Virus record (IMG/VR): IMGVR_UViG_3300045960_000023
Span: 1-50,858 of that record
Strand: one strand, 5' to 3'
Source of the DNA: a virus
Lineage: Duplodnaviria > Caudoviricetes
DNA: 50,858 nucleotides
Shown: one piece after another, positions 2,129 through 45,541 of the stretch
Layout: each line of letters opens with the position of its first letter
Numbering within the stretch: position 1 is the first letter of the stretch
The notes under the pieces: generated by a model
Told to the model about the DNA's origin: nothing
Seen by the model: only the letters and a program-made list of their open reading frames with translations
Database searches by the model: none
Made by a program: the position numbers and the translations under genes

Positions 2129-2159
2129 ACTGCAAATCCCCTTTTACCAACCATTGGTG

Positions 2160-3662
2160 TTAGGCGCAACGCCACCCCTGCGCTACAGGCTCATTGTCCT
2201 CGTTCTCTAGGTCCTTGTACTCGTCTTCAATCGCTTGCGGGTCGTCCTCTTTGTCATCTCCGCTAAAGTAGCGCTCACCAAGTTCGAGTAACTCGATGAT
2301 GTACGCAAAGGCGTCCATGACGTCCCACCTTTTCGACCTCGGGTAGGCGAGTAGTTGTTGCTCCAGTATTGGGCTAATCGCAGGATTGTGATAGACATAC
2401 CCCATCCTATAGAAGGGAACCAGCATGGCGATGCGCTCTTCTTTCGAAGCCCTTGCCTTAAGCTCGACAAGCTGGTAGAACTTCCTACGTTTGATCATCT
2501 CCGTGGTGAACGGATAGGTAATAAACTCATTCAGCGAGGTAACTTCGTACCCGATAGTTCTCGCGCCAATCCTATCAGCCATAGCGAAAGCAATATCGTA
2601 GATCTCATCAGGATGAAACTTGCCAGCCTGAATGTCTCTGACATAGATGGCGCTTTTCTGTGTGTCAACCCCTATCCCCACTATGGCCGAATCGGCTGAA
2701 CTGAAGTTGGTTGTCTTCGCTGGGTCGATTATCACTACATTTTCCAGCCTATTCCTCACCTTAATGAACTCATCACTCTGCTCGTCGTAGCTTTTGAAGT
2801 ACGACTGGCGAAAAGATGCAGTTTCCGTGGCAATAGGCACGCCCCGATACTCACGGGCGAACACATCTAGCTGACCTTTGTTCTTATACGACTCATAAAG
2901 CTGCTTCACGTCATCATCTGACATAAAGTCGGGCCAATTACTGCGCAAATCGTCGCTACAAAGGTCAATCTCGATGGTATGCCACTCAGGATCGGCAATA
3001 AGCTTCGCTAAGAGGCTATCTTCGTGGAGCAAAGTGCCAATAACTACGATTTTCCAGTTCTTAGAGCCCCTGTCAATAGAGTTACACACATCCGCAAAGA
3101 ACCATTCACTGAGCTTTTTGCGCTGATCTTCGCTACGTACACCCTCCGAGTCCTCGAGGTCGTCCCCGATGATGAGGTCGGGTCGACTGTTCCGGTACAA
3201 GATTCCACGAACCTGCTGCCCAGCACCTCGAGGCATAACAAGTGTGCTTCCATTAGCGACCCACATCTCCTTGCTAAAGGTGGTATCTACCTCATCCTCA
3301 CCCGTAGCATTGGTCTTAATGTCCCCAAAGAGCTTCTTAATAGTGGTGTTGGTGCGAAGCTCCATCTTCATATTCTCAGCTTGCATCACCGCTTGCGTAG
3401 CAGTGTTGCTAATTGGTACGATAAAGCGCTTGTCCCTGAAGAGGATATGGCGGCCTGGGAACGCAAAGTTGGTTATCGACGTCTTTCCCCAACCTCGCGG
3501 GGCCTTAATCACAACCCTCTGTATGCTATCGTCGTCAAGCGCTCTAAAGATCTGGTCGGTGAGCGCAGAGAAGGGCCGATGAAAGCGCTCAGGGAACAGC
3601 ACTTTCGCGGATATCTTTGTGCTCGCGCAGCACCGAGCCATGATTTCTTTAAGGTCGTTCAT
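2160..3662 (-). CDS. terL: Terminase large subunit
   Basis: Walker A APRGWGKTS, Walker B LIIGDDLED, coupling motif IGT, nuclease IIDPA...D...WDVMDA. Confidence 0.93.
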   Translation of the reverse strand: MNDLKEIMARCCASTKISAKVLFPERFHRPFSALTDQIFRALDDDSIQRVVIKAPRGWGKTSITNFAFPGRHILFRDKRFIVPISNTATQAVMQAENMKMELRTNTTIKKLFGDIKTNATGEDEVDTTFSKEMWVANGSTLVMPRGAGQQVRGILYRNSRPDLIIGDDLEDSEGVRSEDQRKKLSEWFFADVCNSIDRGSKNWKIVVIGTLLHEDSLLAKLIADPEWHTIEIDLCSDDLRSNWPDFMSDDDVKQLYESYKNKGQLDVFAREYRGVPIATETASFRQSYFKSYDEQSDEFIKVRNRLENVVIIDPAKTTNFSSADSAIVGIGVDTQKSAIYVRDIQAGKFHPDEIYDIAFAMADRIGARTIGYEVTSLNEFITYPFTTEMIKRRKFYQLVELKARASKEERIAMLVPFYRMGYVYHNPAISPILEQQLLAYPRSKRWDVMDAFAYIIELLELGERYFSGDDKEDDPQAIEDEYKDLENEDNEPVAQGWRCA

Positions 3663-3900
3663 CTCCCTCGTAGCACTCCACGGTCACGAGCAGATCACGG
3701 TATGCCTTCACCACGGCCTGATAGTTAGCGAGCAGCAGGCCCTGCGACTCCGGCCTCGCCAGCTCCTGCGGGGACACTGGGCGGGGACAGTACTTTGGTT
3801 TCTGAGTGATCACCGTTGGCGGCTGGACGTTGGACTTTCCCCCGCACGCTATTGTTAAACTGATCAGTAATATCAATAGCCATCTGCTTATACTCCGCAT
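3649..3900 (-). CDS. Outer-membrane spanin (Rz1-like lipoprotein)
   Basis: Signal peptide with lipobox LTIAC, Pro-rich; overlaps the 3' end of the coiled-coil gene in another frame. Confidence 0.75.
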   Translation of the reverse strand: MRSISRWLLILLISLTIACGGKSNVQPPTVITQKPKYCPRPVSPQELARPESQGLLLANYQAVVKAYRDLLVTVECYEGDERP

Positions 3901-4204
3901 TGATCACCTCACATGGCTTATCGCTCTGCTGGTTAGCCACGATCCGCCTATACATATCTGTGGTCTCAGTGGCTATGGTTTTCCACTTGGCAGCCTGCCG
4001 CTTTATATCTGCGATGTTCTGTTCGAGACCAGCTATGATCCCGTTAAGCGATGTTACGTTCCCTTGAAAGGTGACTATCTTCTGCTCTGCCACAGCCAGT
4101 TCACCTTTCAGGGTAGCGATGCTAGCTTTCTTGGCCTGCAGGTCTCCCCACATCAGGGTGAACACCACTACCACTACGGCTAGCGCTATCAGCTTTAAGT
4201 ACAT
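3725..4204 (-). CDS. Inner-membrane spanin (Rz-like)
   Basis: N-terminal TM helix followed by a long coiled coil; in the lysis cassette. Confidence 0.75.
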   Translation of the reverse strand: MYLKLIALAVVVVVFTLMWGDLQAKKASIATLKGELAVAEQKIVTFQGNVTSLNGIIAGLEQNIADIKRQAAKWKTIATETTDMYRRIVANQQSDKPCEVINAEYKQMAIDITDQFNNSVRGKVQRPAANGDHSETKVLSPPSVPAGAGEAGVAGPAAR

Positions 4205-4439
4205 CTGTCTTCAGCTCCTCTCTCTTCTCCAGGTACTTCCCACCTGTCACGGTTATGAACACTAGCGAAGCAAGCGTCACAACACCAGATGGGACATCTC
4301 CTAGCCCATCGTGCACTACATAGACAATAGCCCACGCCATGATAGGAACCGCCACGACTAGGACGGCCACTCCCACGAACACTACTCGCATGGAGGAGAG
4401 GTCGCCCTTAGCCGTGAAAAGACGGGTTGCAAAGTCCAC
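4122..4439 (-). CDS. Putative holin
   Basis: Two hydrophobic helices and a charged C-terminus; lies between endolysin and spanins. Confidence 0.55.
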   Translation of the reverse strand: MDFATRLFTAKGDLSSMRVVFVGVAVLVVAVPIMAWAIVYVVHDGLGDVPSGVVTLASLVFITVTGGKYLEKREELKTDVLKADSASRSGSGVHPDVGRPAGQES

Positions 4440-4442
4440 TTG

Positions 4443-6249: not shown

Positions 6250-6741
6250 CTATGTAGTAGCAACCTCGATGGTTCGCTCCTCTAGCATATCATTCTCGCG
6301 CGCCAACTCCTTCGCGCGGGCTTTGATCTCTGCAAGGTCCTCAGGTGTGAAGTGCATCATGCGGCCATCTACCTGCATCTTCTTCACAGCCCCATGACCT
6401 GCGCGGTCCAGAATATCGCGTGACGCACTCAGTTGGATGGCCTTGTTATCCTCTTGCTCCACCAGCTCCGCCATCTTCTCCACAGCGGACAACGCGATCT
6501 CCTGGATACGCTTCGCTATATCAATAGATTCGACGTCACGCGCAGAACGCAAAAGCTCCAATTGCCTCTTGACAATGGAGCTATTCAACGTATAGGAGAC
6601 CATCTCCGGCGTGACATTGAGGATGGCCGCTATGTCCACTTGCTTCGCCCCACAACTGGCAAGGCGAACAATCTCATGGTGCACGTCCCACATCTTACTA
6701 ATCTGGTACGTCTGCCTATCTGCCATAGGATGTCGGCCCAT
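6250..6741 (-). CDS. Putative terminase small subunit (HTH)
   Basis: ATG at 6741 with GGAGGG RBS (the longer ORF to 7062 looks spurious); HTH QVDIAAILNVTPEMVS; ASRDILDRAG motif; first late gene. Confidence 0.65.
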   Translation of the reverse strand: MGRHPMADRQTYQISKMWDVHHEIVRLASCGAKQVDIAAILNVTPEMVSYTLNSSIVKRQLELLRSARDVESIDIAKRIQEIALSAVEKMAELVEQEDNKAIQLSASRDILDRAGHGAVKKMQVDGRMMHFTPEDLAEIKARAKELARENDMLEERTIEVATT

Positions 6742-6862: not shown

Positions 6863-6885
6863 CTATCACCAATCAATGGTGATAG
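6863..6885. promoter_or_regulatory. Fully extended palindromic operator-like site
   Basis: CTATCACCAATCAATGGTGATAG between the divergent promoters; one of 10 core copies. Confidence 0.7.
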
Positions 6886-7013: not shown

Positions 7014-7119
7014 GTATCCAACAACACGGGAGGTGAACAACATGACCAACTAACATCATCATTAAAGATGACAGCCAGACAACAGCGTGTTACCATGCAC
7101 ACGGGCAAACAGCATGGCG

Positions 7120-7583
7120 TCTAATGCCCACCTTTGGGGACGGATGCACCTTGCACAACTAGCACAATGGAGGTGCATTATGGAACTGCCCAAACTGATG
7201 GTGAAGTATATCAGCACAAAGGTGAATGACGAGGCCGAAGCGGTGAAGACCAAACTCACGCTTGACCTGTCCGGTTTGACCTGGCTTGACGTTCTCGAAT
7301 ATGCTATCATGGCACTGGTTGTCAAATGGCAGGGAACGGCTCGCAGGGCAAAAGGTGGCATCCCTTCCATCGCCACCTGGATTGTTCCGAAGCCCGGAAC
7401 TCGTGCCCAGGTTGACCCGCGTGAGACCGCAATCAATCAACTGATTGCCGCAGGTTACACCCGCGAGGTTGCCACTTTCATTCTTGACAATGCGGACAAG
7501 GTGAAAGTCGCGGCGGACGCTACCGAGGACGAGGAATAACATCAACTCGCAAAGCGCATCCGTCTCCAGAAGTGGGCATTAGA
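7120..7583. repeat. 35-bp imperfect inverted repeats (7120-7154, 7549-7583) flanking one gene
   Basis: 30/35 identity between the left arm and the reverse complement of the right arm. Confidence 0.85.
7180..7539 (+). CDS. Hypothetical early protein (119 aa)
   Basis: ATG 7180 with GGAGGT RBS; acidic C-terminus. Confidence 0.85.
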   Translation: MELPKLMVKYISTKVNDEAEAVKTKLTLDLSGLTWLDVLEYAIMALVVKWQGTARRAKGGIPSIATWIVPKPGTRAQVDPRETAINQLIAAGYTREVATFILDNADKVKVAADATEDEE

Positions 7584-7604
7584 TGGGCATCTCGATGGGA
7601 AACA

Positions 7605-7780
7605 GGTGGGTGTGTATGTGTGTCTGTCTGTGTGCCACCCCCTCCTTCCCATCCATGATGCCACCTTATCCACTATCCCTACTATTAAAAAAATATATAG
7701 AAGAAGAATAAGGGAAGGGATAAGGGGACTGTGCATGGGGGAAGGACTGGGTGGCACACACACGCACCCACCTACCCACA
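7605..7780. other. Large nested inverted repeat with AT-rich centre (candidate origin or processing site)
   Basis: 7629-7640/7749-7760, 7643-7650/7739-7746 and 7664-7671/7718-7725 are exact complements around TATTAAAAAAATATATAG. Confidence 0.55.
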
Positions 7781-7919
7781 CAACGCCCACTTGCATCTTG
7801 CCAACAGGAGGCATCTATGGACTGGTACGTCAAGGTTATAATTGCCATCATCTATGGGCTCTGCCTGATAGTTATGGCAGATGCGTTTCTTAACTTTCTA
7901 ACTTGATAGGGAGGTGTCT

Positions 7920-8111
7920 ATGAACATCGAGGCTATGCTTCAGTCTATTGAACAGGCGGATGAAGATGTGCGGAGGGCTGAGAAGGAAAGGGCAGACCTG
8001 AAGGCGCACATCATCAAGGAGATGGTGAGGGATAACGTCTATGATTTCCTCTCCATTAACATCAGCAAGATGCGCCAGGTCACGAGGCGCATGGATAGGG
8101 TGAGGAGGTAA
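7920..8111 (+). CDS. Hypothetical coiled-coil protein
   Basis: GGAGGT RBS, ATG 7920. Confidence 0.75.
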   Translation: MNIEAMLQSIEQADEDVRRAEKERADLKAHIIKEMVRDNVYDFLSINISKMRQVTRRMDRVRR

Positions 8112-8116
8112 CAGCC

Positions 8117-8513: not shown

Positions 8514-8519
8514 AAACGT

Positions 8520-8554
8520 GGGCACCTATTACCAACCAATGGTGATAGGTGCCC
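8520..8554. promoter_or_regulatory. Long palindrome containing the operator-like core
   Basis: GGGCACCTATTACCA-ACCAA-TGGTGATAGGTGCCC, ~60 bp upstream of the promoter at 8613. Confidence 0.65.
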
Positions 8555-10155: not shown

Positions 10156-10734
10156 ATGAAAGAACAGCCCATACTCTTAATCACCCACACACCTGAACAA
10201 CCAGACCCAATGAGCGCCTTTGACCCTGATCTTGACAACGACTTCTGCCAAGGTATCGAGGAGTACGAGGAGCCAACTGTCAACGATCTCAAGAACGCAA
10301 AGGGCCAGGACAAGATCGACCTCCTCCATGCACTGATGCAGAAGATGAGCAAGTCCGACCTCGCCATCGTTGCCGCTGCCTTCACATCATCTGGGCCGAA
10401 GACACGCAAGGGCACGCCCCATGCTGGCCCAGTCCAGCAGTTCAAAGTAATTACAGTTCATGGCTTCTGCCGCAACTGTGACCACACCATCGTCTACACC
10501 ACCGAACTCAAGGAAGGTCAACACAAGTCATATGTGCGGAAGAATGGCACTGTTGGCTACGTCGAGTGTAAGAAGAACTTCGACCCCATGACTATACAAG
10601 CATGGAGCAACAGTTGTGAACTGTGCCACACTCGTATCATGAAGTGGACGAGGGAGAAGTTGGAAGAGAGGTATATGCAACTCCTGTGTCGTCTCACCTT
10701 CGATGAAACCCCTTCTACCACCAATGATTGGTGA
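10156..10734 (+). CDS. Hypothetical Zn-binding protein
   Basis: AGGAGG RBS; CRNC...CELC. Confidence 0.7.
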   Translation: MKEQPILLITHTPEQPDPMSAFDPDLDNDFCQGIEEYEEPTVNDLKNAKGQDKIDLLHALMQKMSKSDLAIVAAAFTSSGPKTRKGTPHAGPVQQFKVITVHGFCRNCDHTIVYTTELKEGQHKSYVRKNGTVGYVECKKNFDPMTIQAWSNSCELCHTRIMKWTREKLEERYMQLLCRLTFDETPSTTNDW

Positions 10735-10739
10735 TAGCG

Positions 10740-13085: not shown

Positions 13086-13944
13086 AAAAGGAATCATGCT
13101 CTGCTATCCGTTCGAGGAGAAGCGCCTCAAGACTTGGCCTGCGGCTATTGTACAGCCCAAACTTGATGGAGATCGTTGCCGTGCAATCTTCGATGGAAGT
13201 GGCAACGTGACGCTCTTAACAAGTGAGGAGAACGAGGTACAATCCGTTCCCCACATCAAGCGTGCCCTTGAGGCGCTTCACCTCACTCACGTTGAACTGG
13301 ATGGTGAGCTCTATACACATGGGATGCTTCATCAAGACATCAGGAGCATCGTGGGAAGAACAAAGACCCTGAGCATGGACTACGGCGAGATGCAATACCA
13401 CGTCTTCGACATCGTCAACCAGGGGTTCCAGCTAGAACGTCTCAAACTCGTGCAAAGCATGATGATGCAGGCTGGGCCTGAGATCGAGGTTGTTCCCTTT
13501 GAGCTAGCCCACAACGTAGAACAGATTATGCAACTGATGGCCGACTACAACGAGATGGGCTATGAAGGCGTTATCGTGAGGCATCCCTTTGGTCAGTATG
13601 TACGGAAGAGAAGCACACAGATCATGAAGTTCAAACCTCGCAAGGAAGATTTCTATACGATAGTTGGAAGCGTAGAAGAAATCAGCATCCACGGTGAGCC
13701 GAAGAACGCACTCGGTGCGCTGATTTGCCAAGATGATATGGGCACCTCCTTTCAAGTGGGCAGTGGGCCTGCCTTGACCAGAGAGGGTCGCATTGCGCTA
13801 TGGGCTGAGCGCAGTGCACTCCCTGGCAAGGTAGCCCACATTAAGTACCAACACTTGAGCAAGGACCATGTGCCTCGTTTCCCAGTACTTGTTGAAGTCA
13901 TTAGTCCCAAAGATGTGGGGCTGGCTAATACCAATGATTGGTGA
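13078..13944 (+). CDS. ATP-dependent DNA ligase
   Basis: Motif I QPKLDGDR, motif III LDGEL, YHVFD, EGVIV, MKFKP, C-terminal PRFP. Confidence 0.93.
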   Translation: MSRKGIMLCYPFEEKRLKTWPAAIVQPKLDGDRCRAIFDGSGNVTLLTSEENEVQSVPHIKRALEALHLTHVELDGELYTHGMLHQDIRSIVGRTKTLSMDYGEMQYHVFDIVNQGFQLERLKLVQSMMMQAGPEIEVVPFELAHNVEQIMQLMADYNEMGYEGVIVRHPFGQYVRKRSTQIMKFKPRKEDFYTIVGSVEEISIHGEPKNALGALICQDDMGTSFQVGSGPALTREGRIALWAERSALPGKVAHIKYQHLSKDHVPRFPVLVEVISPKDVGLANTNDW

Positions 13945-13956
13945 AAGGAGTCAGAC

Positions 13957-18030: not shown

Positions 18031-18138
18031 GTGGAAGGGGGCGGAGACGTCTGTGAAGGGCCCCATGCTGCCACTGCTAACCCGCAGGAAGGCGGTGGAT
18101 AAGCCGCGAGAGTAGCAGATCGTCACGTCCCCTTCCAC
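18031..18138 (+). ncRNA. Structured intergenic RNA candidate
   Basis: GTGGAAGGGGGCG/CGTCCCCTTCCAC outer stem; inner GACG/CGTC, CTGCTA/TAGCAG and CCGC/GCGG stems. Confidence 0.4.
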
Positions 18139-18164
18139 CATTCATTGGTAATAGGAGAACAATC

Positions 18165-18398
18165 ATGAGTGATAAGTTTGTACCCCGCTTATCCATCGAC
18201 ATCACTCTCGAGCAACAGAAGCGTATCCAAGACCTCATCCCCTGGGGTCTACGCGGTCCCCTCTTCGCCATCATTGTAGAAGATATGCTCAACCTGATTG
18301 AAGAGCATGGGGAGAAGGTGATCGCAGTAGTGATAAGCAGGAAGCTTCGCCCGAGGGACCTGATGCTGAAGATTGAGGAGAAGAAACATGGAACTTAA
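18165..18398 (+). CDS. Putative ribbon-helix-helix regulator
   Basis: PRLSIDITLEQQKRI strand-helix pattern; an operator-like palindrome lies just upstream of its RBS. Confidence 0.5.
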   Translation: MSDKFVPRLSIDITLEQQKRIQDLIPWGLRGPLFAIIVEDMLNLIEEHGEKVIAVVISRKLRPRDLMLKIEEKKHGT

Positions 18399-18618: not shown

Positions 18619-19959
18619 ATGGCTATCGAAATGTTAACTGTCCAACGCTCCCAGATAAGTGTGGGAGCTCGCTTTCGTGAAGACTACGGTGACCTCTCTG
18701 ACCTCGCCAATAGCATGAAATCAGAAGGTATCATCCAACCACTGGCTGTGAAGGCAGACCCTCAAAATTGTGGATTTATCCTTCTAGCTGGCGGCCGGAG
18801 AATGAAGGCTGCTGAGAAGGCAGGCATTTCTGAAATTCCCGTCCGAGTGTACCCTGCAGACATCAGCGATACCCAGATGCTTCTCATCGAACTGTGCGAG
18901 AACGTCTACCGCAAGGATATGACTTGGCTCGAGCAGACCCGCCTCCGCAAGAAGATCCATGAGCTGGGCATTGCAACTGAGGGACGTAAAGTGAGCACTA
19001 GCCCCGATGCCAAGGGCTGGTCGCAACAGAAGACAGCTGATATGACTGGCGTGAACCAGCGCATGATATCTGCTGAGCTCCAGTTAGCCGAAGCAGTTGA
19101 GGCGTTCCCTATCTTGCAACAGGCTAAGACGAGAGACGAAGCGCTCAAGATGATGAAGAAGATGAGCGAAACTATGATCCGTGGAGAGCTGGCCAAGCGC
19201 ATACAGGATAAGACTGCAAGCACTCCCATGGAGAAGCAGCTAACTGATCTGTCCAATAGGTATATCGTGGCTGACTTCTTTGATCTGGCGAAACAGTTAC
19301 CCGATAAGAGCATTGACTTCTGTGAGATCGATCCCCCTTATGCCATCGACCTGATGGGGCTGAAGAAGAAGCAGGACATCTCTCAGTACAACGAAGATAC
19401 ATACAATGAGGTGGATCAACAGGACTACCTCCACTTCATCGACCGCACTGTGCGTGAGTGCTACCGTGTCATGACTGACTCGTCGTGGCTTGTGATGTGG
19501 TTCGCTATCGAGCCTTGGATCGAAGATATGTACATGATCCTCAGCAAGGCTGGCTTCTCAACACGTCGCCTCTGTGGTATGTGGATTAAGGAGACGGGCC
19601 AGACTATGAACCCAGCTATGCACCTGGCCAACCAGTACGAACCCTTCTTCTACGCACGCAAGGGCAACGCTACGCTGATGAAACAGGGGAGAGGCAATGT
19701 CTTTCAGTACAAAGCTGTCCCGCCCACAAAGAAGATCCATCCTACAGAGCGGCCTATCGAGCTCATCCAAGAAGTTATCTCTACATTCTGTTGGGAAGGA
19801 AGTCGCATCCTTGTCCCGTTTCTCGGTAGTGGCAACACTCTGTTGGCGGCGAGCAACCTTGGGCTCACAGCCTTTGGTAGTGATCTTAGTCAGGAGTACA
19901 AAGACTCCTACGTCATGAGAGTACACACTGGGAAACCTGGAGAGTACAAATCCTATTAA
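18619..19959 (+). CDS. ParB-N-terminal domain fused to N6/N4 DNA methyltransferase (beta class)
   Basis: GIIQPL...LLAGGRR...EN..RKD (ParB), an HTH, then DPPY, HPTERP and PFLGSGNT. Confidence 0.88.
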   Translation: MAIEMLTVQRSQISVGARFREDYGDLSDLANSMKSEGIIQPLAVKADPQNCGFILLAGGRRMKAAEKAGISEIPVRVYPADISDTQMLLIELCENVYRKDMTWLEQTRLRKKIHELGIATEGRKVSTSPDAKGWSQQKTADMTGVNQRMISAELQLAEAVEAFPILQQAKTRDEALKMMKKMSETMIRGELAKRIQDKTASTPMEKQLTDLSNRYIVADFFDLAKQLPDKSIDFCEIDPPYAIDLMGLKKKQDISQYNEDTYNEVDQQDYLHFIDRTVRECYRVMTDSSWLVMWFAIEPWIEDMYMILSKAGFSTRRLCGMWIKETGQTMNPAMHLANQYEPFFYARKGNATLMKQGRGNVFQYKAVPPTKKIHPTERPIELIQEVISTFCWEGSRILVPFLGSGNTLLAASNLGLTAFGSDLSQEYKDSYVMRVHTGKPGEYKSY

Positions 19960-22507: not shown

Positions 22508-23522
22508 TATGTACATAGTCCTGGTGGGCCCTAGTGGTAAGTGTCGTAAGGGCACAGCTATGGGACCTGGCTTCAAGTTCCTCAAGGAGATGGGGATCAA
22601 GATGAGTGCCGAAGCTATAACACGGGAAGCACTCATAAGGGAGATGAAGCAGAGCAGTGATACGCAGATCGACCCATCTGGAAAGATCACTATGCACAGC
22701 AGCCTGTCAATCTATAGCCAAGAACTCACGGTGTTTCTGGGCTATAACAATCAACAGCTCATGGCAGACCTCGCAGACTGGTACGACTGTCGTGACCACT
22801 GGACGTACCGCACTAAAAACATGGGCACAGATGACATCACTGGAGTCTGGGTCAATCTTATCGGAGCTACGACTCCGGAACTATTGCAGACTACCCTTCC
22901 ACGTGACGCTATCGGTGGTGGACTTACAAGTCGAATGGTCTTCATATTCGAGCGAGAGAAAAGCAAGATTGTCGCTGCGCCTTTTCTCACTGCTGAGGAG
23001 CGAGCACTTGAAAAGGATCTACTCCTTGACCTTGAGCAGATCGCCATGCTCCAAGGAGAGTTCAAACCCACAAGCGCCTTCCTCGATAGGTGGGTAGACT
23101 GGTACACCACAAGCGGAGAGCATCCTCCCTTTGAAGATGCGAGGTTCGCAGGCTACATCGAACGTAGGCCCACACACCTGTTGAAGATGTCCACTATCCT
23201 AAGTGCAAGCAGAAGCAACAGCATGGGAGTGGATGTACAAGACTTCGAACGTGCCTTGTTTATGTTGGAGAGTGCGGAGAAGACAATGCGTAACACCTTC
23301 GGTGGTATGGGTAGAGCACCCATCGGAGACATTATCAGTCGCATCTTGGTGCTCGTGAGGAACATGAAGGAGCTGGAGTTTGGTGAAATCCTGAGGCGCT
23401 TCTACTACGACTCAGACCGAGATGAGTTGGAGCGTGCAATCACTACACTCGAAGGTATGGGCTTTGTCTCTATTGAGCATAGGGGAACCAAGAAGATAAT
23501 AAGGGATACGGGCCGTATCTAA
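22344..23522 (+). CDS. DUF3987-type P-loop ATPase (putative helicase) with C-terminal wHTH
   Basis: YPNMYIVLVGPSGKCRKGT, GATTP, GGLTSR arginine finger. Confidence 0.7.
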   Translation: MSTRKLPDWLDGYLKYTKNSEPPTSYKAWVAISVMASCLKRKVQLSWGTLTFYPNMYIVLVGPSGKCRKGTAMGPGFKFLKEMGIKMSAEAITREALIREMKQSSDTQIDPSGKITMHSSLSIYSQELTVFLGYNNQQLMADLADWYDCRDHWTYRTKNMGTDDITGVWVNLIGATTPELLQTTLPRDAIGGGLTSRMVFIFEREKSKIVAAPFLTAEERALEKDLLLDLEQIAMLQGEFKPTSAFLDRWVDWYTTSGEHPPFEDARFAGYIERRPTHLLKMSTILSASRSNSMGVDVQDFERALFMLESAEKTMRNTFGGMGRAPIGDIISRILVLVRNMKELEFGEILRRFYYDSDRDELERAITTLEGMGFVSIEHRGTKKIIRDTGRI

Positions 23523-23543
23523 TACCAACCATTGGTGATAGCC

Positions 23544-30200: not shown

Positions 30201-31793
30201 GTCTTCTACATCATGCCCTCTATTAGCCAGCTCACGTCTCACAGCAAGGTCAGTCATGGGCTTCTTAACGATCCCATCCACTATGCCCTGAACCTCAGCG
30301 CGTGTGGCACCTGTGTGGGCCAGGTCTATAGCAATATCGTCAGGCACATACTTCATGCCAAACTTCTTAGAGGGGTCAATAGGCTGCTCAGCCTTCGGAG
30401 CCTTGGCCGCCTTGGGCACAACAGCTGCAGGTGCAGGCTCAACGGGGATACCTGGAACCTGTGCACCTTCAATGGGCGTAGCAACAGGCGCAGGTGGCTT
30501 CGTCTGGTCAATTCCCTTAGCCTTCGCAGCTTCAACGGCCGCCTTAATGTCAGGGTTCTTGTTGAGGAAACTTTCTGGAATAGATCCAAACACACCCTGC
30601 CCAGCCTGGGCCGCTTCTGATAGCTTAGACACACGCCCCATGAGGAGTTCCTTCTCCTTTAGAGGCGTAGCAGGGTCTCTCATCTTCGCAACAAGCTCAG
30701 CGTGGAGCGCCTGCATCTCTGCCACCCTACTAGGGTTAGCGATGCCAAAGCGCATAGCATCTGCTGTACCTTTAAAATCAGGTATGGGTTCGGCACCTTT
30801 CACCAATGATTGGTCTGAGGGTGCGGGTTTCCCCGCTTCGACCACAGGCGTCTCGGTGTCCCAGCTTGCACGCCCACCAACCTTTCCAACAGGCCCAGGA
30901 GGCGGCTCACCACCAGGGATCGTTCCTTCATAGGTCTGTCCGAAGGGCTGATTCTCCCTCAGCCACTGAGCATCCTTATACTCCACATCAGTGGCCGCTT
31001 GTGCATCTCGAACCGTCTCGTACTCTTTGAGAGCATTGGCTAGGTCAGCATCTTCTAGGATTTTCTCTCTGACTCCTTCCTTCGCCAACGCAGCGTCAAT
31101 GTCAGCATTATTGCGGAATCTGGATGCGGCCTTTCCAGTCGCCATGCTGAGACCTTTAGCCAGAACCTTGAAGGCCAAGCTAAAACCAGCTGCTCCCAGA
31201 GCAAACCCTCCGGCTTCTTCAAGTGACTTCGCCCCCCTTTCCATCAGGGTAGCTCCAGGTGTAGCACCTGCAGCTCCAACCACTGCTCCAGACAAAGCTC
31301 CATGGCCTGCGACTCTAGCGGTACCTTCAATGAGGCCAGCACCTGCACGGGGCGCTACCATTGTAGCTATCTTCTCCGCTAAGGGAACTCCAACCCTACC
31401 AAGCCCCTTGAGTGCGGCTGTACCTACTCCACCACCAGCTGCATAGAGAGGCATCTGCGGGGCGAACTCAGCAAGCCCAAATGCCAGCTGGCCCGCCATA
31501 GATGTGGGCGGTGCCTCATGTACAGCTTGATAGTCCTTGAAACTCTTCGCCTCAGCCTCCCTCGCTCTGGAGAGCTTCTCTATCCCCTCCATACCAAGCA
31601 GGTTGGCGATGTTACCTGTCGTCTCGAATAGCTTCGCACCACCAGTCTGCAGGGCACCAGTCAGGTACGTGCCGAAGCTCGGCTCCTCTTTCGGTTTAGA
31701 CTGCTGTTGAATAAAGGCAGCGATCTCATCATCGCTCTTATCAGCCAGAGCATCTGGCACGTCGTAGACGTTATCGTACAGTTGTACTTTCAT
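24234..31793 (-). CDS. Large polyvalent internal virion/ejection protein with ART-like and DNA methyltransferase domains (2519 aa)
   Basis: Last structural gene. Gly/Ala-rich hydrophobic N-terminus; YHGT...GTGEGAAYRGWGIY...AGIPG...YVWFDP (ART-PolyVal-like); VLDIFGGTG...TSPTY...PGGYFVLNMKD (MTase). Confidence 0.8.
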   Translation of the reverse strand: MKVQLYDNVYDVPDALADKSDDEIAAFIQQQSKPKEEPSFGTYLTGALQTGGAKLFETTGNIANLLGMEGIEKLSRAREAEAKSFKDYQAVHEAPPTSMAGQLAFGLAEFAPQMPLYAAGGGVGTAALKGLGRVGVPLAEKIATMVAPRAGAGLIEGTARVAGHGALSGAVVGAAGATPGATLMERGAKSLEEAGGFALGAAGFSLAFKVLAKGLSMATGKAASRFRNNADIDAALAKEGVREKILEDADLANALKEYETVRDAQAATDVEYKDAQWLRENQPFGQTYEGTIPGGEPPPGPVGKVGGRASWDTETPVVEAGKPAPSDQSLVKGAEPIPDFKGTADAMRFGIANPSRVAEMQALHAELVAKMRDPATPLKEKELLMGRVSKLSEAAQAGQGVFGSIPESFLNKNPDIKAAVEAAKAKGIDQTKPPAPVATPIEGAQVPGIPVEPAPAAVVPKAAKAPKAEQPIDPSKKFGMKYVPDDIAIDLAHTGATRAEVQGIVDGIVKKPMTDLAVRRELANRGHDVEDLKKMKPEDKRDALNRELVEEALDAEIAKRGQGLTPEQRSAPVETTPQLDIQARILVDKKRAFEAKIDKLKKSGMKVEEISAMTPEQVHTKHAELLNKDAADAIAELTKRKPADKGLKGLEKAEQTLNDAKALELDGDLAPSRLELIQLKVIEQKLAKRDAEASAPAEPEPTRRQRRTPEEDKEIEEWLSDTTLDLKEPAVVEDIPNVPTETKPTVELKTAEDFEALLKSEGMGADLPGEGGGFTLDFMGLQQMYEMARDIFKRDINKDTLSLVGRGLFLEGPKEFPAFKKRMEEIAGPAWPAIKGNIGDLFEQSKAWHTNLTENGILTYHGTKVFFMPNERGEIGYDLRYAGTGEGAAYRGWGIYTTKKVEIAESNYAERLARKANEREGVSGERTIMIGDRPLSNRDLTQIYGYTIGDVATLLKMKDPKSIEGVLTNKAVEFGAYLERQIEGMKHSLDIGRKLERGREQAVQEGRATPASLEAMRLENRHREEAYKKEIAKDQAKLDALNEFSKMMYEGNGVKIKEPVGAKYKAVVYETRHLPEVEEKLLNLDTELKPEQRTAIVGALDKIAKKETKGGDKDWLADLVDVPTDLVPELRKRNSQYIDGLITRDEYKQFIHNRLKQETELLDILRDKADVTDPLWKASGYKGMSTYERITLRRTIESYMRFVEDQGPDFLFKTDSRVAQLRDVLKSEETAKAGADVTVDNDGLGLPLAYDIESPHTQGKIIAEAGQILTQNLANGLSRQYGISNVRVAPSGIGTERVVRIMEPKGKMTGHDVQYKLWEIFGNGDTHATGARKATSEFLRDEAGIPGNKFVSQGGGAETYVWFDPKHAQPVREYTLDSLGLQQTYEGLRDMVKRGRLHPAVYPQGIQKLMGDLASGLQVKTVLDIFGGTGRIGKIKEYGYDGKVIANELEPAWGGVRTTDLHKTNGVDVSIIGDARKIDLPNESVGAIMTSPTYGNEMARTGASRTESYQAFAGGELKEGNTGGMIWGPEYEALHKEAYKEAFRVVEPGGYFVLNMKDRFKSDRIPKANSTVAVEGGVMKATDWHTKALEAEGFKFVKQYKVEEGFATSAAHEVKRRNTVGYEDVVVLQKPVADGPSPYGSGVTFDFMGGQQATEALYKLWRRTRDGKTTLGSDKLKEALLGKDGKEWLHDRLPDPDAIRVWESEVRQPMRIAQKIGGKAFDFVTRWNMADLSSVHKFAAAGGDRDVLNAIFGQLDKAGRLELGKVVENKAKASSEKVATAAGQLRDWLDMMWDEKIATTKADFKSHLKPEEYEALMQVIEKKYSPETIFSKFDEKDAHVLRGLVDDFRALESKYIPDYMTHFERGSIVLRDKEVGGKVVAVGVSKADAIRKAQRIKEADPSAELYMDTNFMKDMPQGIGQGQYFSVLKRLSDSNDKILKEINEGIAKGESTLAAKRAVRGLFIIKPTYKFSAFEKRRFDTLAGEEDVSSVLFNYAYTMRRKTALDPLIAEARGIINRDYAGQPNTQEFLRTLIEDTKGRYHWQDKAADDLIRWIGRETGIERMETASMTATKGAAYARAAEGILKLAYRPIAAAFNYLGGQGNVWTQNGTKYFSAGYKFLASKEGKQFIKEMEPIMGQTFAHEGESLKPRHEVFKGLPWWTQPMGMFERPEIPNRSIGLAAPYLMARDSVKNGGLGMGEAEARIYAFQQNVFSQATYNIANLPSILRSPVGKTMGQFKTYMINQLEFMAHLSAPQAGRFLMVQAALGGPRAIVAMLKAAPVLAMFGWWGEIEQWMDKNYPRASRGVGGMLGIDVTGPAALQMPQSMSDWAGPFISDIVKTYNNVLKSYMAGEKMAPRTFKEGVEFSTSIAEQVSPLMKTWPKLLIDKMATPGQNGYIIKDQRGREIYRLENVDIAKVVMGAEPLEAARIKQFESREKQHAAQLSKRKAYVTDAVVDALNAGEVVPPHVWDEMFTLGIRSSTIRREMKMRMLSPEARRIIQTEMLRRGEIMEEFPKPAQ

Positions 31794-37555: not shown

Positions 37556-37739
37556 TCTTCTTCTCCCTCTTATGCTCGTGCTTCATGGTAGCGTGGAAAG
37601 CGCGCCTCAGCTCCATGCGGCCCATCCTCTTATTCTCCGGCACCTTGTACCATTCATTGGTGATAGTGTCGAGATATTCTTGCACGACCGACACCATCTT
37701 CTCATCCTCATATGTCACGATAAGTCGGGTAGTTTTCAC
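37533..37739 (-). CDS. Small hypothetical protein
   Basis: GTG at 37739 after AGGTG; fills the gap between fibre genes. Confidence 0.55.
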   Translation of the reverse strand: MKTTRLIVTYEDEKMVSVVQEYLDTITNEWYKVPENKRMGRMELRRAFHATMKHEHKREKKSDAPVKA

Positions 37740-40572: not shown

Positions 40573-43382
40573 TAGACCGCCACGAGGTGAATGTCGTCAA
40601 TACCTATGTCGCCAGTTGTCGATCCATCCCAGGCCATAAACTGTAGCCTCAGGTACCCAGCTTCAGACGCAGTAACTGTTGCCGAAGTGTGCTCCTCCCA
40701 GCTATCTGTCAGCGTCACGCTTTGCTCATAGATAGGTGTAATGCCACAACCTGATATGCAATACTTCAACGTGCAGTCTGCTCCAGAGCTAGTCTTCTTC
40801 ACATAAAAGTGAACCTTATAGTCATCTCCAGCTGTCACTGGTATATAGATGGGCTGCACGCACATAGGCAGATACACATAAGTTGGGCTTAAATATAAGC
40901 ATAGCCCAGATCCTCCTCGTGCCCATGCTGCGTTCTGGCCACCTGTTATCTGGTCAGAAACTGTTCCAAATGAGTAGTATGTTATATACCGCCCTGCTTG
41001 CTTGAAGCTGTCAATACAAAGTATAGGTCCATTACCACAGTAAGGTGACTCGATATAAGCTGCCCACGTTCCAGATGTCTCTATGTAGCGACCAATTCTT
41101 ATCGGGCCAATAGGTACTGAACTATTGCTTCCCCCCACAGTAGGCTGAATTCCATAAGCTATAGTCGCATCGCAATTTACCTCTCCTATCTCTGCACCTA
41201 GCGCATCTCCAACAAGCAAAGAGTTAAACGTATTATAGAAGTTGACCTTATCTATATACACATTCTCAGCAGTGGTTGCAATGCGTAGACCATCAGGACT
41301 TGCTGGGCCCCCGTAGATGTTTATAGTTCCATGATACTTAAGGTCGCCATGAATGGCAACTACACTATAGATATTCCTATTCGATGTAGCGTTAATGGTT
41401 CCTGTCCCTGTAGACCCCTGTCCTACTATGTAAGCTGGAACATATGTCTGACCACTACCAATACAATAGTGGTCGCCCTCCCACCTGTGACAATGTGTAC
41501 TTCCTGGGTACGAGCCTAACGCAACTGTAACCCCAGCTCCAGTGCTAGCTCCACAGAGGTTAGAAAACTTATGTCCCCCATAGTCGCTAGAATTGTCTAC
41601 GCTTATGACATAGCCTCTACCGACTTGTCCTACCCTATCAATGGCTATTGAATTCTTAGTGGCGCAAGTTAAGACAGCTATATTAGTTGTAGCTCCAGCT
41701 ACACCAAACATAGACATGCCAGTCGAATCCTGAGAGTCTGTAGAGAAGTCCCATCCTCCCTGGAACGTTAAGTAGTTCTGCGACCAAAGACCTGCGCCAC
41801 TAGAAAGGTTACTTATAGATGCGGAAGCATTTATCCTATAAGGCTCAATGATATAGGCGTGGACATCAGTAGCTGTAGCAAGATGATAAGGGGAAGCATT
41901 CGTAGTGGAGTGCCCATAGCCAAGACCAACAGTTAGCCCATCTGTAGACACACTACTTACACAGAACCACCATCCATCATCTCTACCAACAGCAGAGCCG
42001 TGAGCTAGATCGTTGGTAGCAAAGATATTGTCTATATAGAACGTAGGCGTTGTTGGGTCGGACACTGCATATAGAGCAATAGACCGTATACCATTAGATA
42101 GCGCAGATCCTTTGTCTAGAACGATAAGATGTGATGTACTACCTACTAGTGCAGGGAGGTTGAGCGTGTCTAGCGCAGTATCACCAGTCGCATCACTACA
42201 CAGCTTTAGCTGGATATTCCCAGCAGCTTGCGCTGTGCCTAAGAGATAGATATACATAGAGACCTTGGTGTAGCCAGATAGATTAAGCTCATTACCCGCA
42301 CCAAAGTCTACCCAAGCTATCTTCCCAGATGTAAAGGCAGATGCCACGGCAATATACGATGACTTTGATCCCTCAACGAAGTATGTAGTGTTCGTATTGA
42401 CAGTGACCGCTGCATCTGTCTTAGACCACGCAGACTCACACGCGTAGATATTGGCGGTCCTAGCATTATCCAAGACAAAGGTTGAATTACCATTCGTCCA
42501 GTCAGAGTGGCCCATATCCACCTTAGTTGACTTCTTTATATAAACTGTATCACCATTGGAAAGTGAGCCTGCAGGAAATCCAGTATCGAACGTCTTCTTT
42601 GGCACTGTGTAGACCTGGCCACTATTAGCATCAGACCCGCTAGTAGGGTCTACATACCAGTTCCCAGCCCAGTGTGCACCTGCGCCCGAGAACGTACCAG
42701 CCTTGATAGCATCTATATCAGCGTCAGATAAGAAGGAGTCCCAGAGCGTCAGCTCGTCAATCTCACCATCATGAGGGGACGTTCCAGCGCCTAGAGCACC
42801 TACGCCATAGTCGCCATCTTCTATGTTCATCTCATTAGCCAGAGCTGACCAACCACTAGTCCAGTCACCAGCTGTATCGTCCCATACCCTATAATGAAGC
42901 CTTTTCCTGTAATCTCCTTGTATACACACTGCAAAGAAGTACCACCGACCAGTAGTGATGGTCTTCATAACATGATAGGCCCAAGACCCTCCACCTGCTG
43001 CGGCCCAAGCTACTCGAAAAGAAGTAGTCCCCCCTCCGACATAGAAGCAGTACTTGGTCAATGCGTACTTACTAAAAAGACCCCAGGCCGACGGAGTAGA
43101 CTCACACATGAACCAACCTGTTACAGAGAAGTTGGTATTAGTCGTCCCATTCTTCCCAGGCCATGTGCTTGGTGCGCTAGAGTCAGATAAAATAAGGTAT
43201 TGTGTACTACTAGACTCAAAGTCAGCAGACGCAGAACCCTGCTTATAATCAGTGGTGTTAGCAACTGGATAAGCAGTTCCATTCGAAAGGGTGGCACTTC
43301 CCTTACTATCGGTGAGAAGTGCCCCATCCTCGAAATTGTACACTGACAAGCAGTGGGTTGCACTGGAGAAATCGTTCGCCAT
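40572..43382 (-). CDS. Tail spike/fibre with LamG-like N-terminal domain and carbohydrate-binding-like modules
   Basis: NFSVTGW...TTGRWYFFA...DGEIDELTLWDSFLS (LamG); WYVDPTSGSDANSG; C-terminal LTDSWEE...IDDI. Confidence 0.75.
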   Translation of the reverse strand: MANDFSSATHCLSVYNFEDGALLTDSKGSATLSNGTAYPVANTTDYKQGSASADFESSSTQYLILSDSSAPSTWPGKNGTTNTNFSVTGWFMCESTPSAWGLFSKYALTKYCFYVGGGTTSFRVAWAAAGGGSWAYHVMKTITTGRWYFFAVCIQGDYRKRLHYRVWDDTAGDWTSGWSALANEMNIEDGDYGVGALGAGTSPHDGEIDELTLWDSFLSDADIDAIKAGTFSGAGAHWAGNWYVDPTSGSDANSGQVYTVPKKTFDTGFPAGSLSNGDTVYIKKSTKVDMGHSDWTNGNSTFVLDNARTANIYACESAWSKTDAAVTVNTNTTYFVEGSKSSYIAVASAFTSGKIAWVDFGAGNELNLSGYTKVSMYIYLLGTAQAAGNIQLKLCSDATGDTALDTLNLPALVGSTSHLIVLDKGSALSNGIRSIALYAVSDPTTPTFYIDNIFATNDLAHGSAVGRDDGWWFCVSSVSTDGLTVGLGYGHSTTNASPYHLATATDVHAYIIEPYRINASASISNLSSGAGLWSQNYLTFQGGWDFSTDSQDSTGMSMFGVAGATTNIAVLTCATKNSIAIDRVGQVGRGYVISVDNSSDYGGHKFSNLCGASTGAGVTVALGSYPGSTHCHRWEGDHYCIGSGQTYVPAYIVGQGSTGTGTINATSNRNIYSVVAIHGDLKYHGTINIYGGPASPDGLRIATTAENVYIDKVNFYNTFNSLLVGDALGAEIGEVNCDATIAYGIQPTVGGSNSSVPIGPIRIGRYIETSGTWAAYIESPYCGNGPILCIDSFKQAGRYITYYSFGTVSDQITGGQNAAWARGGSGLCLYLSPTYVYLPMCVQPIYIPVTAGDDYKVHFYVKKTSSGADCTLKYCISGCGITPIYEQSVTLTDSWEEHTSATVTASEAGYLRLQFMAWDGSTTGDIGIDDIHLVAV

Positions 43383-43394
43383 CTTGCGCTCCTA

Positions 43395-43817
43395 TCAGCT
43401 AGGGGTACCTTTGCTCAACTGGAACGTAGGGGTAACCTTCAACTGGTCGCCGTTGTTAGCGGGGGTAAAGGTCGACGCAAACTTCTCAGCCCAGATCAAC
43501 ACGGTACCTGCGTTGTTCGTGACCAGGTAGCCGTAGATATCTGTGTTCGTGGTGAGAGGGCCGGTGAAGGTAAACGTCTGCTCAGCGTAGACCGCGTCGC
43601 TGGGATCATTTGCAGTGTCGACCGTCCAGCTATTATTGGTCAGCGTCTTGGCAGCATAGCCACCACCAACTGCCAACGTATAGTCGCCAATCACATCTGC
43701 GTCGTCAGGTGTCACGTCAGTGACGAACAATTCCAGCTTCAGATTCTGCTGCGCTGTGTTGTTGAAAAAGGTATTGAGAATAAGATCTGCGCCAACATCT
43801 ACGAGTGTAAGAGCCAT
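43395..43817 (-). CDS. Minor tail/fibre adaptor protein
   Basis: LKLELF...GGGYAAKTL...EQTFTFTG...IYGY...WAEKF...NGDQLKVT. Confidence 0.65.
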   Translation of the reverse strand: MALTLVDVGADLILNTFFNNTAQQNLKLELFVTDVTPDDADVIGDYTLAVGGGYAAKTLTNNSWTVDTANDPSDAVYAEQTFTFTGPLTTNTDIYGYLVTNNAGTVLIWAEKFASTFTPANNGDQLKVTPTFQLSKGTPS

Positions 43818-43826
43818 TGTATCCTC

Positions 43827-44396
43827 CTATGAGATAGCCATGCTTCCTCTTTGCGTCATTGTAAGGGTAAGGGGATCAGCTGCGATAACCAAGCTCGTCC
43901 CCACTCCATCTGTATCAGGTCCACCGATGAGCACTTGCCCATTGTAGTTACACATAGCCACCGCTGTTGGGAGCGTGGCAGATGTGGTGTAAGCACCAGT
44001 CGCCGCACTCCGGATAACAGCAACGTGCCCATTGCTCATATACAGGTAGCTATGGAAATCAACTACATCCCACGGGCTTCCTGCCGCAGCGGCTGTGTAC
44101 ATCAGAGTCCATGAGCCTCCGATCAGCTCATATATCTTCTGAGCGCCACACGCTAGGGTCACATGGGAAAGGGCGAACAGCTGAGGATAGGGGAACGCAT
44201 CTGTGATAGGCGTGCCCAGCTTGGTAAGCGTCTCAAGCGCCTGGAGTACACCATCTTGTCCAACTGCGCCATCACAGGTGATGAGGTACTCCTCATTCCG
44301 AGGGTTCCTCAGCGACGCTCTCAGTCCCCTAGAGAGGTCTCTATCCACGGTGAAGGTGAACTTTCCACCCTTCACCACAACAGCGTACATAGCCAT
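43827..44396 (-). CDS. Tail nozzle protein, N-terminal part (putative)
   Basis: Beta-propeller-like blades ending at CNYNGQVLIGG; located just after the adaptor region. Confidence 0.45.
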   Translation of the reverse strand: MAMYAVVVKGGKFTFTVDRDLSRGLRASLRNPRNEEYLITCDGAVGQDGVLQALETLTKLGTPITDAFPYPQLFALSHVTLACGAQKIYELIGGSWTLMYTAAAAGSPWDVVDFHSYLYMSNGHVAVIRSAATGAYTTSATLPTAVAMCNYNGQVLIGGPDTDGVGTSLVIAADPLTLTMTQRGSMAIS

Positions 44397-44764
44397 TAGA
44401 TGTCTCCGTGGTTAGTGGGGCGTACCGCCTCGAGCGGCCCATCGAAGGTGCGTCTCGGCTTGCTATCCACGCCCTTCATATCCAGCGTTCCCAGAGTCTT
44501 GAGCTTCTGCTGAATCATAGGAACGGCCTTGGCCAGCTTCTCCTCATACGAGAGCAAGGGATTCTTACCATCAACCTGCTCGATCGTCGAGGCGACCACA
44601 TCCTTATGATTCGCGAATTCTGGGTGATCCTTGTAGAACGCGCTGTTCAGCTTACTGTACATGGCCTGTTGCGCCATCAAGCTACCCATCACAGTGGGCA
44701 ATGAGAGGATAGCCCTCTCCACTGCAGCGTTGATGATCTCTTCTCTCTCCTCAGGCGTTATCAT
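44396..44764 (-). CDS. Helical protein resembling the scaffold core
   Basis: ATG 44764 with GGGGG RBS; FYKDHPEF...KNP resembles scaffold WYDSNPDL...KEP. Confidence 0.6.
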   Translation of the reverse strand: MITPEEREEIINAAVERAILSLPTVMGSLMAQQAMYSKLNSAFYKDHPEFANHKDVVASTIEQVDGKNPLLSYEEKLAKAVPMIQQKLKTLGTLDMKGVDSKPRRTFDGPLEAVRPTNHGDI

Positions 44765-44765
44765 C

Positions 44766-45509
44766 TTATCCCCCCATCTGGCTCGTGCCAGCTGTATCGT
44801 ATTCTGCATCATCGTCGTCCAGACCTTTGAGGTCACCCTGAACAACGATCTTCATATCTGCCGCACCACTTGTGTTCATGTAGAGCCCGTGCAACTTCAT
44901 AATAGCGGCAGCAATAAGTGTATCGGGATGGTTCTCAGTCCAGTAGGATTGGACCTGAGTCCACAGGCCACCACTCAGGGTAGCAGAAAGTGTTGGACTA
45001 TAGAAGAGGCCCACGATGCTGATGAAGCAGAGCTCCGCGGGCGTAGGCATGATAATGATGCCGTTGTTCACGAAGTGGGTGCTATCAAGCAGTAGGTCTT
45101 CAATGTCCTGTTGCCCGCCACCACTCAGCATCGTATCAGGATAGGGGCGGAAGGAGACAGGCGCGTAGTCGGTAGGCGGCCCCTGAGTCTCGGACGAGAG
45201 GGCCTTTCCATAGTACTCCTTGATCTCTCCAAGGGAGCAGAGGTTCAAGGGGTAAAGTGAGGTTCCATCACTCTTAGTATACCACACTTCTTTGACAGCA
45301 CGCAGGCCTTCAACATACACCTTGAGGGTTCCAGCTGCCACAGATTGCACATTCCTAGCCGTGGCCTTCTGAAAATCGTGGCTACGATCCAAGTACCGCT
45401 GTGCAGCGTTGAGGAAGAAGTCAGCCCCATTGTCCTCATTGGTAGATGTGATGAGGTCATAACGTCCACTCACCTCCACGAACTTATCTCTAACTTCCTT
45501 GTAAGTCAT
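44766..45509 (-). CDS. Head-tail adaptor (tail tubular A-like)
   Basis: MTYKEVRD...FLNAAQ...GPPTDY...MPTP...SYWTENHPDTLI; follows the capsid gene. Confidence 0.7.
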   Translation of the reverse strand: MTYKEVRDKFVEVSGRYDLITSTNEDNGADFFLNAAQRYLDRSHDFQKATARNVQSVAAGTLKVYVEGLRAVKEVWYTKSDGTSLYPLNLCSLGEIKEYYGKALSSETQGPPTDYAPVSFRPYPDTMLSGGGQQDIEDLLLDSTHFVNNGIIIMPTPAELCFISIVGLFYSPTLSATLSGGLWTQVQSYWTENHPDTLIAAAIMKLHGLYMNTSGAADMKIVVQGDLKGLDDDDAEYDTAGTSQMGG

Positions 45510-45541
45510 GTGCCCACCTTTTACCAATCGTTGGTATAAGT

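Follow-up and report, generated by a model that had tools for sequence, protein, structure and literature searches.

The stretch of DNA analyzed here, hereafter the window, is the entire virus record IMGVR_UViG_3300045960_000023 (50,858 nucleotides, one contig), a 50.9-kb podophage genome. Along it lie ten copies of the palindrome ACCANNNNNTGGT (ACCA-N5-TGGT), which we describe together with the best candidate to read them, a phage-encoded ParB-like protein fused to a DNA methyltransferase (ParB-MTase). The minus strand carries the structural arm, with an SU10-type portal and adaptor, the large and small terminase, the major capsid protein and an endolysin (PHROGs and Pfam assignments), and a 2519-aa open reading frame (ORF; 24234-31793, minus strand) closes this arm. 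Encoded on the plus strand are a ligase, an exonuclease, a Sak4-like ATPase, a DUF669 protein, the ParB-MTase, a DNA polymerase and a primase. The ORF 7087-7539 (plus strand) has a homologue in the related contig G004, the ORF at about 8361-8513 is likewise the likelier gene, and what was called on the minus strand from 7062 to 8525 looks non-coding; the plus arm therefore begins near 7087 and not at 8668, about 1.6 kb further left, which places the palindrome at 6868 in the divergent region between the arms. Throughout, G numbers denote whole contigs (G000 is the window) and L numbers fetched loci; G001 is L076, G005 is L090 and Microcystis phage Mel-JY34 is L172. The ten sites and the two genes central to the argument are given below. 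Sites are named by the first letter of the ACCA core, with the 23-bp frame beginning five letters earlier, and all ten rows rest on a 12/12 match to the extended pattern described further on.

2141..2163: site 1 (2146), between the stop of the large terminase gene (TerL) and the start of the portal gene
6863..6885: site 2 (6868), palindromic over all 23 bp, where the late (minus) and early (plus) arms diverge
8526..8548: site 3 (8531), on the plus arm past the small gene 8361-8513, inside a longer inverted repeat (8520-8554)
10715..10737: site 4 (10720), overlapping the stop of ORF 10156-10734 (TNDW, then stop)
13925..13947: site 5 (13930), overlapping the stop of the DNA ligase gene 13078-13944 (TNDW, then stop)
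18132..18154: site 6 (18137), immediately 5' of the Shine-Dalgarno sequence and ATG of the 77-aa gene
23519..23541: site 7 (23524), immediately past the primase stop; the Desulfofustis phage has a site at the same junction
30797..30819: site 8 (30802), in frame within the 2519-aa ORF, coding DQSLVKG
37644..37666: site 9 (37649), between ORFs 37741-40572 and 36293-37555
45518..45540: site 10 (45523), between a GC-rich hairpin that follows the major capsid gene and the adaptor gene
18165..18398, plus strand: 77-aa ribbon-helix-helix (RHH)-like protein, conserved upstream neighbor of the ParB-MTase and a rival or partner candidate
18619..19959, plus strand: fusion of ParB (CTPase fold and helix-turn-helix, HTH) with an N6/N4 DNA methyltransferase, the most likely candidate to read the sites

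The ten palindromes, first reported in the original prediction, are real and far beyond chance: 100 dinucleotide-preserving shuffles gave 0.83 copies on average with a maximum of 4, none (0/100) reaching 10, and the narrower centre WYSRW fits 10/10 copies. The extension to TGGT-RAWAG, which had been said to run mostly along transcription, is present on at least one side of all ten and on the transcription-downstream side of nine, the exception being 37649. The full site is a 23-bp frame, CT-N3-ACCA-N5-TGGT-N3-AG, matched by 10/10 copies: read along transcription, C and T stand invariantly 5 and 4 letters before ACCA, and A and G 4 and 5 letters after TGGT. The downstream flank is somewhat better kept than the upstream one among the window sites, column 20 being A in 9/10 and column 4 being T in 3/10. 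When the whole window was scored for the 12 letters of this pattern, ten sites matched in full (12/12), no position scored exactly 11 and a single one (27943) scored 10, so that the site set is discrete; 30 shuffles gave 0.03, 0.13 and 2.7 sites at 12 or more, 11 or more and 10 or more letters, and the match at 27943 is at chance level. Degenerate copies had also been claimed at 9057 and at 9110, the latter abutting the -10 element of a promoter. Since the window holds 24 one-mismatch matches to ACCA-N5-TGGT, these two among them, against about 19 by chance, we treat both as chance; neither reaches 9/12 in the extended pattern.

Placement at gene borders held as predicted, although the count did not: revised gene calls put nine sites there instead of eight, with the tenth (30802) inside the 2519-aa ORF. 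The shared TNDW ending of two proteins whose stop overlaps a site is likewise confirmed (sites 4 and 5). The best explanation for the border placement is that a 23-bp palindrome is hard to fit inside coding sequence. The sites fill most of the short intergenic spacers and therefore abut the ribosome-binding site of the next gene.

Megablast of both window halves against cultured phages returned no match; among named phages, Desulfofustis phage LS06-2018-MD01 is the closest, its large terminase being 44% identical. We fetched 70 loci around relatives of the major capsid protein (MCP) gene, and an alignment-based scan yielded 406 stretches encoding ParB-MTase relatives, of which the best 80 loci were kept; a single-protein scan had given 1 locus. 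Exact ACCA-N5-TGGT occurs 21 times in the 1.1 Mb of the 70 MCP-centred loci, about chance level, and the ACCA core is kept only in L001:5100 and L025:3065, both at the homologous post-capsid junction and both in loci with the closest or near-closest capsid genes. The junction of site 10 carries a site in L001, L025, L004 and L012. At least 14 of the 41 loci longer than 15 kb are strongly enriched, each in a palindrome of its own that is built alike, with other cores in the same frame, for example CCTAyc-GCAATwwwATTGC-gatAGG, CTAyt-GTGAAAwTTTCAC-caaAG and CTATG-GGGAn5TCCC-CAtAG. The original prediction had made conservation in related genomes a test of the sites; frame and architecture are kept there, while the ACCA core is mostly replaced.

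Framed sites number 16 in G001, 9 in G002, 5 in G003, 13 in G004, 17 in G005, 9 in the Desulfofustis phage, at least 10 in G009 and 8 in G013, counted on whole contigs. The ribosome-binding site and start of the next gene follow within 6-30 nt of the sites in relatives, and only 20 of 101 sites fall well within the interior of a called ORF, where about 87 would do so by chance (eight genomes, crude ORF caller). Symmetrised half-sites give the family consensus CTaTG-TTCAAA-W-TTTGAA-CAtAG, with the half-site variants GTTTA, GGTAA, GTCCA, GTCAA, GTCCC, GGGGA and cGCAA, and yACCA in the window; one clade has a different outer frame, AGaTc...gaTCT. Two candidates for framed sites were rejected: GGTCC-N4-GGACC of L017 sits in collagen-like coding repeats, and the top palindrome of L005 proved to be a tandem repeat. 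In two relatives, non-coding DNA near the contig ends carries sites in tandem pairs, 50-76 bp from one another (G001, 274/324 and 1763/1825; G005, 48123/48199 and 50079/50155); the window has none.

To ask what kind of molecule is recognized, we imposed a 10-pair hairpin on the ten window 23-mers and scored pairing and covariation. Of the ten copies, 5 fail to pair at spacer positions 3-21, 8 at 4-20 and 4 at 5-19, and the loop-adjacent pair is open in 4/10. The covariation score is 0.047 against a shuffle mean of 0.075, with no compensatory changes. Because the intervening spacers are unpaired and do not covary, the outer CT and AG are conserved as letters and not for pairing with each other. 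This speaks against a long hairpin and for a symmetric protein that binds duplex DNA.

The phage encodes a protein that would suit such a target. The ParB-MTase matches ParB_N (PF02195, E 3.1e-13) and N6_N4_Mtase (PF01555, E 2.1e-18), and its GxxxP, GGRR and ExxENxxR columns, the nucleotide-binding boxes as defined in the accessible part of a recent survey (PMC12704722), are invariant in seven orthologues. Positions 5-185 of its profile align to the Noc chains 7ng0 and 7nfu (E 2.3e-16 and 3e-16), a span that takes in the HTH domain, and positions 19-190 align to the ParB family protein 7bnk. By homology the protein is therefore predicted to carry all three ParB nucleotide-binding boxes and a central HTH. 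Residues ~216-446 are an N6/N4 methyltransferase with a DPPY motif, standing in place of the ParB C-terminal dimerisation domain, and the best solved matches of this part are N4-cytosine and CcrM/RsrI-type methyltransferases. The ParB-MTase is kept in all six comparison genomes, as are the 77-aa protein and the DUF669 protein, and a 142-aa protein is kept in five. Two further binders named in the original prediction fell away: the product of 8668-9072 is not conserved (1/6 genomes), and that of 6250-6741 is the small terminase.

The main evidence for the ParB domain comes from its divergence relative to that of the methyltransferase domain. We assigned inner half-sites manually to 68 of 87 ParB sequences (60 distinct), leaving out 19 with no clear motif, built a tree from the ParB-MTase alignment minus its HTH columns, and picked 15 phylogenetically independent pairs with different cores and 13 pairs with the same core, comparing ratios by one-sided Mann-Whitney U tests. 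Relative to the methyltransferase, the DNA-binding domain diverged more in different-core than in same-core pairs (1.21 versus 0.96, p = 0.0005), as did the HTH alone (1.26 versus 0.97, p = 0.0019); the result holds in the eight different-core pairs within the same-core divergence range (p = 0.003 and 0.0017). The N-terminal strand region of the 77-aa protein gave 1.21 versus 1.19 (p = 0.55), and the whole 77-aa protein 1.42 versus 1.08 (p = 0.036). In a blind column scan no individual column stood out as setting specificity; the excess was regional, spread over the DNA-binding domain. This exploratory test suggests that the ParB DNA-binding domain tracks the core of the site.

The distribution of sites among genomes is compatible with a link of this kind. 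Dispersed palindromes are present in 9/9 complete or near-complete genomes with a close ParB-MTase (G000-G005, the Desulfofustis phage, G009 and G013), and G006 (complete) and G012 have no ParB-MTase match, no 77-aa gene and no sites. The 77-aa gene is also present in all nine genomes and is undetected in Mel-JY34, G008 and G010, so that co-occurrence does not separate the two proteins. The spacing of the sites partly fits a need to cover the genome, as the largest circular gap is smaller than random in the window (7.9 kb, P = 0.002-0.003), G001, G002 and the Desulfofustis phage. An in-frame site within the giant ORF is kept in the window, G001 and G002, and in G009 two sites flank that ORF exactly.

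We consider it slightly better than an even bet that the ten palindromes are duplex docking sites, similar to parS or to the OB operators of KorB, for a dimer of the phage's own ParB-MTase, the candidate reader. The Noc/ParB-type HTH would read the inner half-site, ACCAA in the window phage and mostly GTTCAA in its relatives; by analogy with ParB and KorB, the protein would then close at the site as a nucleoside triphosphate (NTP)-gated clamp and slide away. Once sliding, the protein could bring its methyltransferase to DNA all along the phage genome, where sites are at most 7.9 kb apart, or it could act on transcription as KorB does. The earlier proposal of binding sites for a dimeric phage protein fits the symmetric, unpaired conserved letters, the family-wide architecture and the apparent co-evolution with a phage DNA-binding domain. 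It had offered two roles for such sites: loading of the ParB-MTase in the manner of parS is the one we favor, given the predicted CTPase boxes, the Noc-like HTH and a domain that seems to track the core; the results speak neither for nor against operators or roadblocks.

The 77-aa protein offers the strongest competing explanation. The sites could be operators of this RHH-like protein, binding as a dimer of dimers and acting as a global regulator, or it could read the outer CT/AG letters beside ParB in a KorA/KorB-like arrangement; we regard either as unlikely. Its gene lies just upstream of the ParB-MTase gene in 80/80 loci (the best 80 of 406; one match is weak and cut by the locus end) and is undetected in every tested genome that lacks sites. 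A site directly precedes its start codon in the window and in at least 22 of the 80 ParB-centred loci, as expected of an autoregulated repressor. The protein begins with what looks like an RHH strand, and VIA-align of the structural model (predicted local distance difference test score, pLDDT, 83.5) gave RelB, ParR, DinJ, NikR and TacA as top matches, all of them RHH proteins. These matches are weak (Z at most 3.9), however; a Foldseek search of pdb with the model gave no match at E 0.001 or better, and Pfam has no match for the window's protein, while 1/27 members matches ParD at E 0.047. Moreover, the putative reading strand does not track the core (p = 0.55 and 0.73): the strand PRLSVEISEET is common to L118, with the core GTTCA, and to L115/L120, with GGTAA, and the ParB recognition helix differs in the same comparison (SPATLI in L118 versus SHASLI in L115/L120). 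A link between RHH strand type and outer frame type was tried and dropped, being broken by L133 and L161.

Less probable still is that the sites bind a host factor or another phage protein as promoter-proximal control elements, with each lineage matching its own host. Sites of the host regulator CtrA are documented in phage intergenic regions in the accessible part of one report (PMC9437464). The palindromes do lie 6-30 nt upstream of start codons, and the late arm (31000-50858) has no strong sigma-70-like promoters (16 matches against 16.6 expected, none above 10/12). Against a host factor, changes in the core accumulate gradually over the phage tree and appear to go along with those in a phage domain. 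The sites are too near the start codon for an upstream activator, those in frame within the giant ORF count against a promoter-proximal role, and neither an RNA polymerase nor a sigma factor was matched by any ORF of the window, the 2519-aa one included (PHROGs, Pfam). A genome search with PF00940 also gave no match, but its control matched nowhere either. Early promoters are easier to find: a perfect sigma-70 consensus lies at 9099-9127 on the plus strand (TTGACA, 17 nt, TATAAT, with TG), further good matches stand at 6985, 8613, 12020 and 12884, all on the early part of the plus arm, and sigma-70-like promoters flank site 6868 on both strands.

Finally, it is very unlikely that the sites act as RNA or single-stranded DNA hairpins, be it for processing, for stabilising mRNA, as translational operators or as N4-type hairpin promoters. 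Each core could fold into a stem of 5-6 bp with a 3-nt loop, ribosome-binding sites come next, the centre is co-oriented with transcription in G001 (16/16 sites) and G009 (10/14), and site 8531 lies within an inverted repeat with a 14-bp stem followed by TTT, but compensatory changes are missing, unpaired spacers part CT/AG from the core, G002 and G004 show no orientation bias, Rfam gave no family match at gathering thresholds, and the giant ORF has a methyltransferase-like motif and no RNA-polymerase family match. The centre triplet of the G001 sites (L076-L078) is AAA or TAA on the plus arm and TTT or TTA on the minus arm.

Several observations weigh against docking sites for the ParB-MTase. 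That same co-orientation in all 16 sites of G001 is not predicted for a purely symmetric docking site. The co-evolution test is exploratory because it was designed after the data had been inspected, with core calls made by hand, same-core pairs picked by hand and some taxa used in both sets. A tentative rule linking His at helix position 2 to GG fails in L108 and L148/L149, and neither protein can account for the difference in outer frame, CT...AG versus AG...CT, where L133 and L161 break the pattern. Of the three genomes whose ParB-MTase is divergent, Mel-JY34 and G008 lack dispersed palindromes altogether and G010 shows four weak sites. Such genomes count against a simple ParB-only rule, and the 77-aa gene matches the distribution of the sites no less closely than the ParB-MTase does. 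Spacing is not even in four of eight genomes (G003, G004, G005 and G009). Lastly, the likeness of the family consensus to known operators is not specific: going by the accessible part of one source, the operator read by KorA, an HTH protein outside the ParB family, comes as close to it as a ParB site does (PMC11790492). Mel-JY34 (PP438425.1) has the same genome layout as the window and a full-length ParB-MTase at 25% identity; its only repeated palindrome, TCTTCGAAGA, occurs in three copies, inside genes.

Docking sites for the ParB-MTase could be taken one step further, to a proposal that we put forward tentatively and think rather doubtful as a whole. The ParB-MTase may be an NTP-gated sliding methyltransferase that loads only at the phage's palindromes and methylates in cis, with the 77-aa protein as a clamp-locking or timing partner. 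If this were true, the phage genome would be marked quickly and selectively while host DNA stayed unmarked, a loading-site-dependent, self-restricted epigenetic protection, and the palindromes would be kept at most ~8 kb apart, even within the giant gene, as loading points. Even if the palindromes are simply the targets of the ParB-MTase, this class of fusions would gain a testable recognition site and natural specificity variants in several hundred related phage contigs. It would also gain a concrete mechanism to examine, in which the protein loads at a site, slides, and then modifies or regulates. The clamp principle of ParB and KorB, which serves segregation and the silencing of plasmid genes, would thereby extend to lytic phages and the modification of DNA.

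Other features of the genome adjoin these sites. The inverted repeat 8520-8554 around site 8531 has a stem of ~14 bp followed by TTT and lies just upstream of the promoter at 8613; it may double as the terminator of the first small plus-strand genes. A GC-rich hairpin stands between the major capsid gene and the site in the window (45536-45575), in L012 (~11365-11390) and in L004 (~11320-11344), and looks like a partial terminator behind the most expressed gene. The early 192-aa protein encoded at 10156-10734 (plus strand), whose stop lies within site 10720, has two CxxC pairs, resembles a zinc ribbon and has a weak match in 1/6 relatives. Within the structural arm, 47565-48035 (minus strand) encodes a hexapeptide-repeat, acetyltransferase-like protein (Pfam Hexapep, E 7.5e-17). 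ARAGORN found no tRNA in the window.

The 2519-aa ORF itself has a weak PF01555 match at residues 1487-1629 with a TSPTYG motif, resembling S-adenosylmethionine-dependent methyltransferases, which would be a second methyltransferase-like domain of the same phage beside the ParB-MTase. It also contains the motif T(L/F)D(F/S)(M/L)G(L/G)QQ three times, and its glycine-rich and membrane-like segments are more in keeping with an internal virion protein that is ejected than with a polymerase. An N4-like virion RNA polymerase was considered for this ORF and dropped on account of the methyltransferase-like motif, these same segments and the lack of a polymerase family match.

Among known systems, Cluster A mycobacteriophages carry stoperators, which are asymmetric, strictly oriented with transcription and read by the immunity repressor of a temperate phage. 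The sites described here are unlike these in being palindromic, and scans of the window ORFs with PHROGs and Pfam gave no integrase or repressor family match. They also differ from N4-type hairpin promoters, as pairing is not kept up in the sites (no covariation, unpaired spacers). ParB-parS and Noc with its binding sites (NBS) come closer: in common are the N-terminal NTP-binding boxes, an HTH that can be aligned to solved Noc and ParB chains, and a palindromic target, and the outer letters of the family consensus are presumably similar to canonical parS. Unlike parS and NBS, the site is of odd length (23 bp), with an A/T-rich centre and extra conserved outer letters, its copies are dispersed genome-wide rather than clustered, and no partition partner was found: none of 65 ORFs scanned with PHROGs or 56 scanned with Pfam gave a ParA-like match. 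Fusions of a ParB-CTPase fold to an N6/N4 methyltransferase are frequent in phages and prophages, with a role given as unknown in the accessible part of the 2025 survey (PMC12704722). The domain architecture is the same as here; that part of the survey names no DNA target, whereas we describe a candidate target and its variation across a family. We found no literature describing dispersed palindromes as targets of ParB-MTase fusions, although supplements might list targets. ParB-like activators of phage thymidine dioxygenases, which have no DNA-binding domain, were reported in 2026 (PMC13229309); as far as the accessible text goes, both systems couple a phage ParB-like protein to a DNA-modifying enzyme, but here the HTH is kept and the enzyme is fused.

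The closest parallel is KorB of the IncP plasmid RK2, for which the accessible parts of two papers describe twelve OB sites over ~60 kb, loading at OB and sliding to promoters (PMC13768133, PMC11790492). In both cases a ParB-family protein goes with about a dozen dispersed palindromes per 50-60 kb replicon, site positions are conserved between relatives, and a small DNA-binding partner is encoded nearby, KorA and TrbA being the clamp-locking partners of KorB and the 77-aa protein the candidate here. The two also differ. KorA is of the HTH type, whereas the conserved small neighbor here looks RHH; the sites of the phage abut ribosome-binding sites and not promoters; the replicon is an apparently lytic phage in which PHROGs and Pfam found no ParA/IncC-like gene; and where KorB has its dimerisation domain, the phage protein has a DNA methyltransferase.

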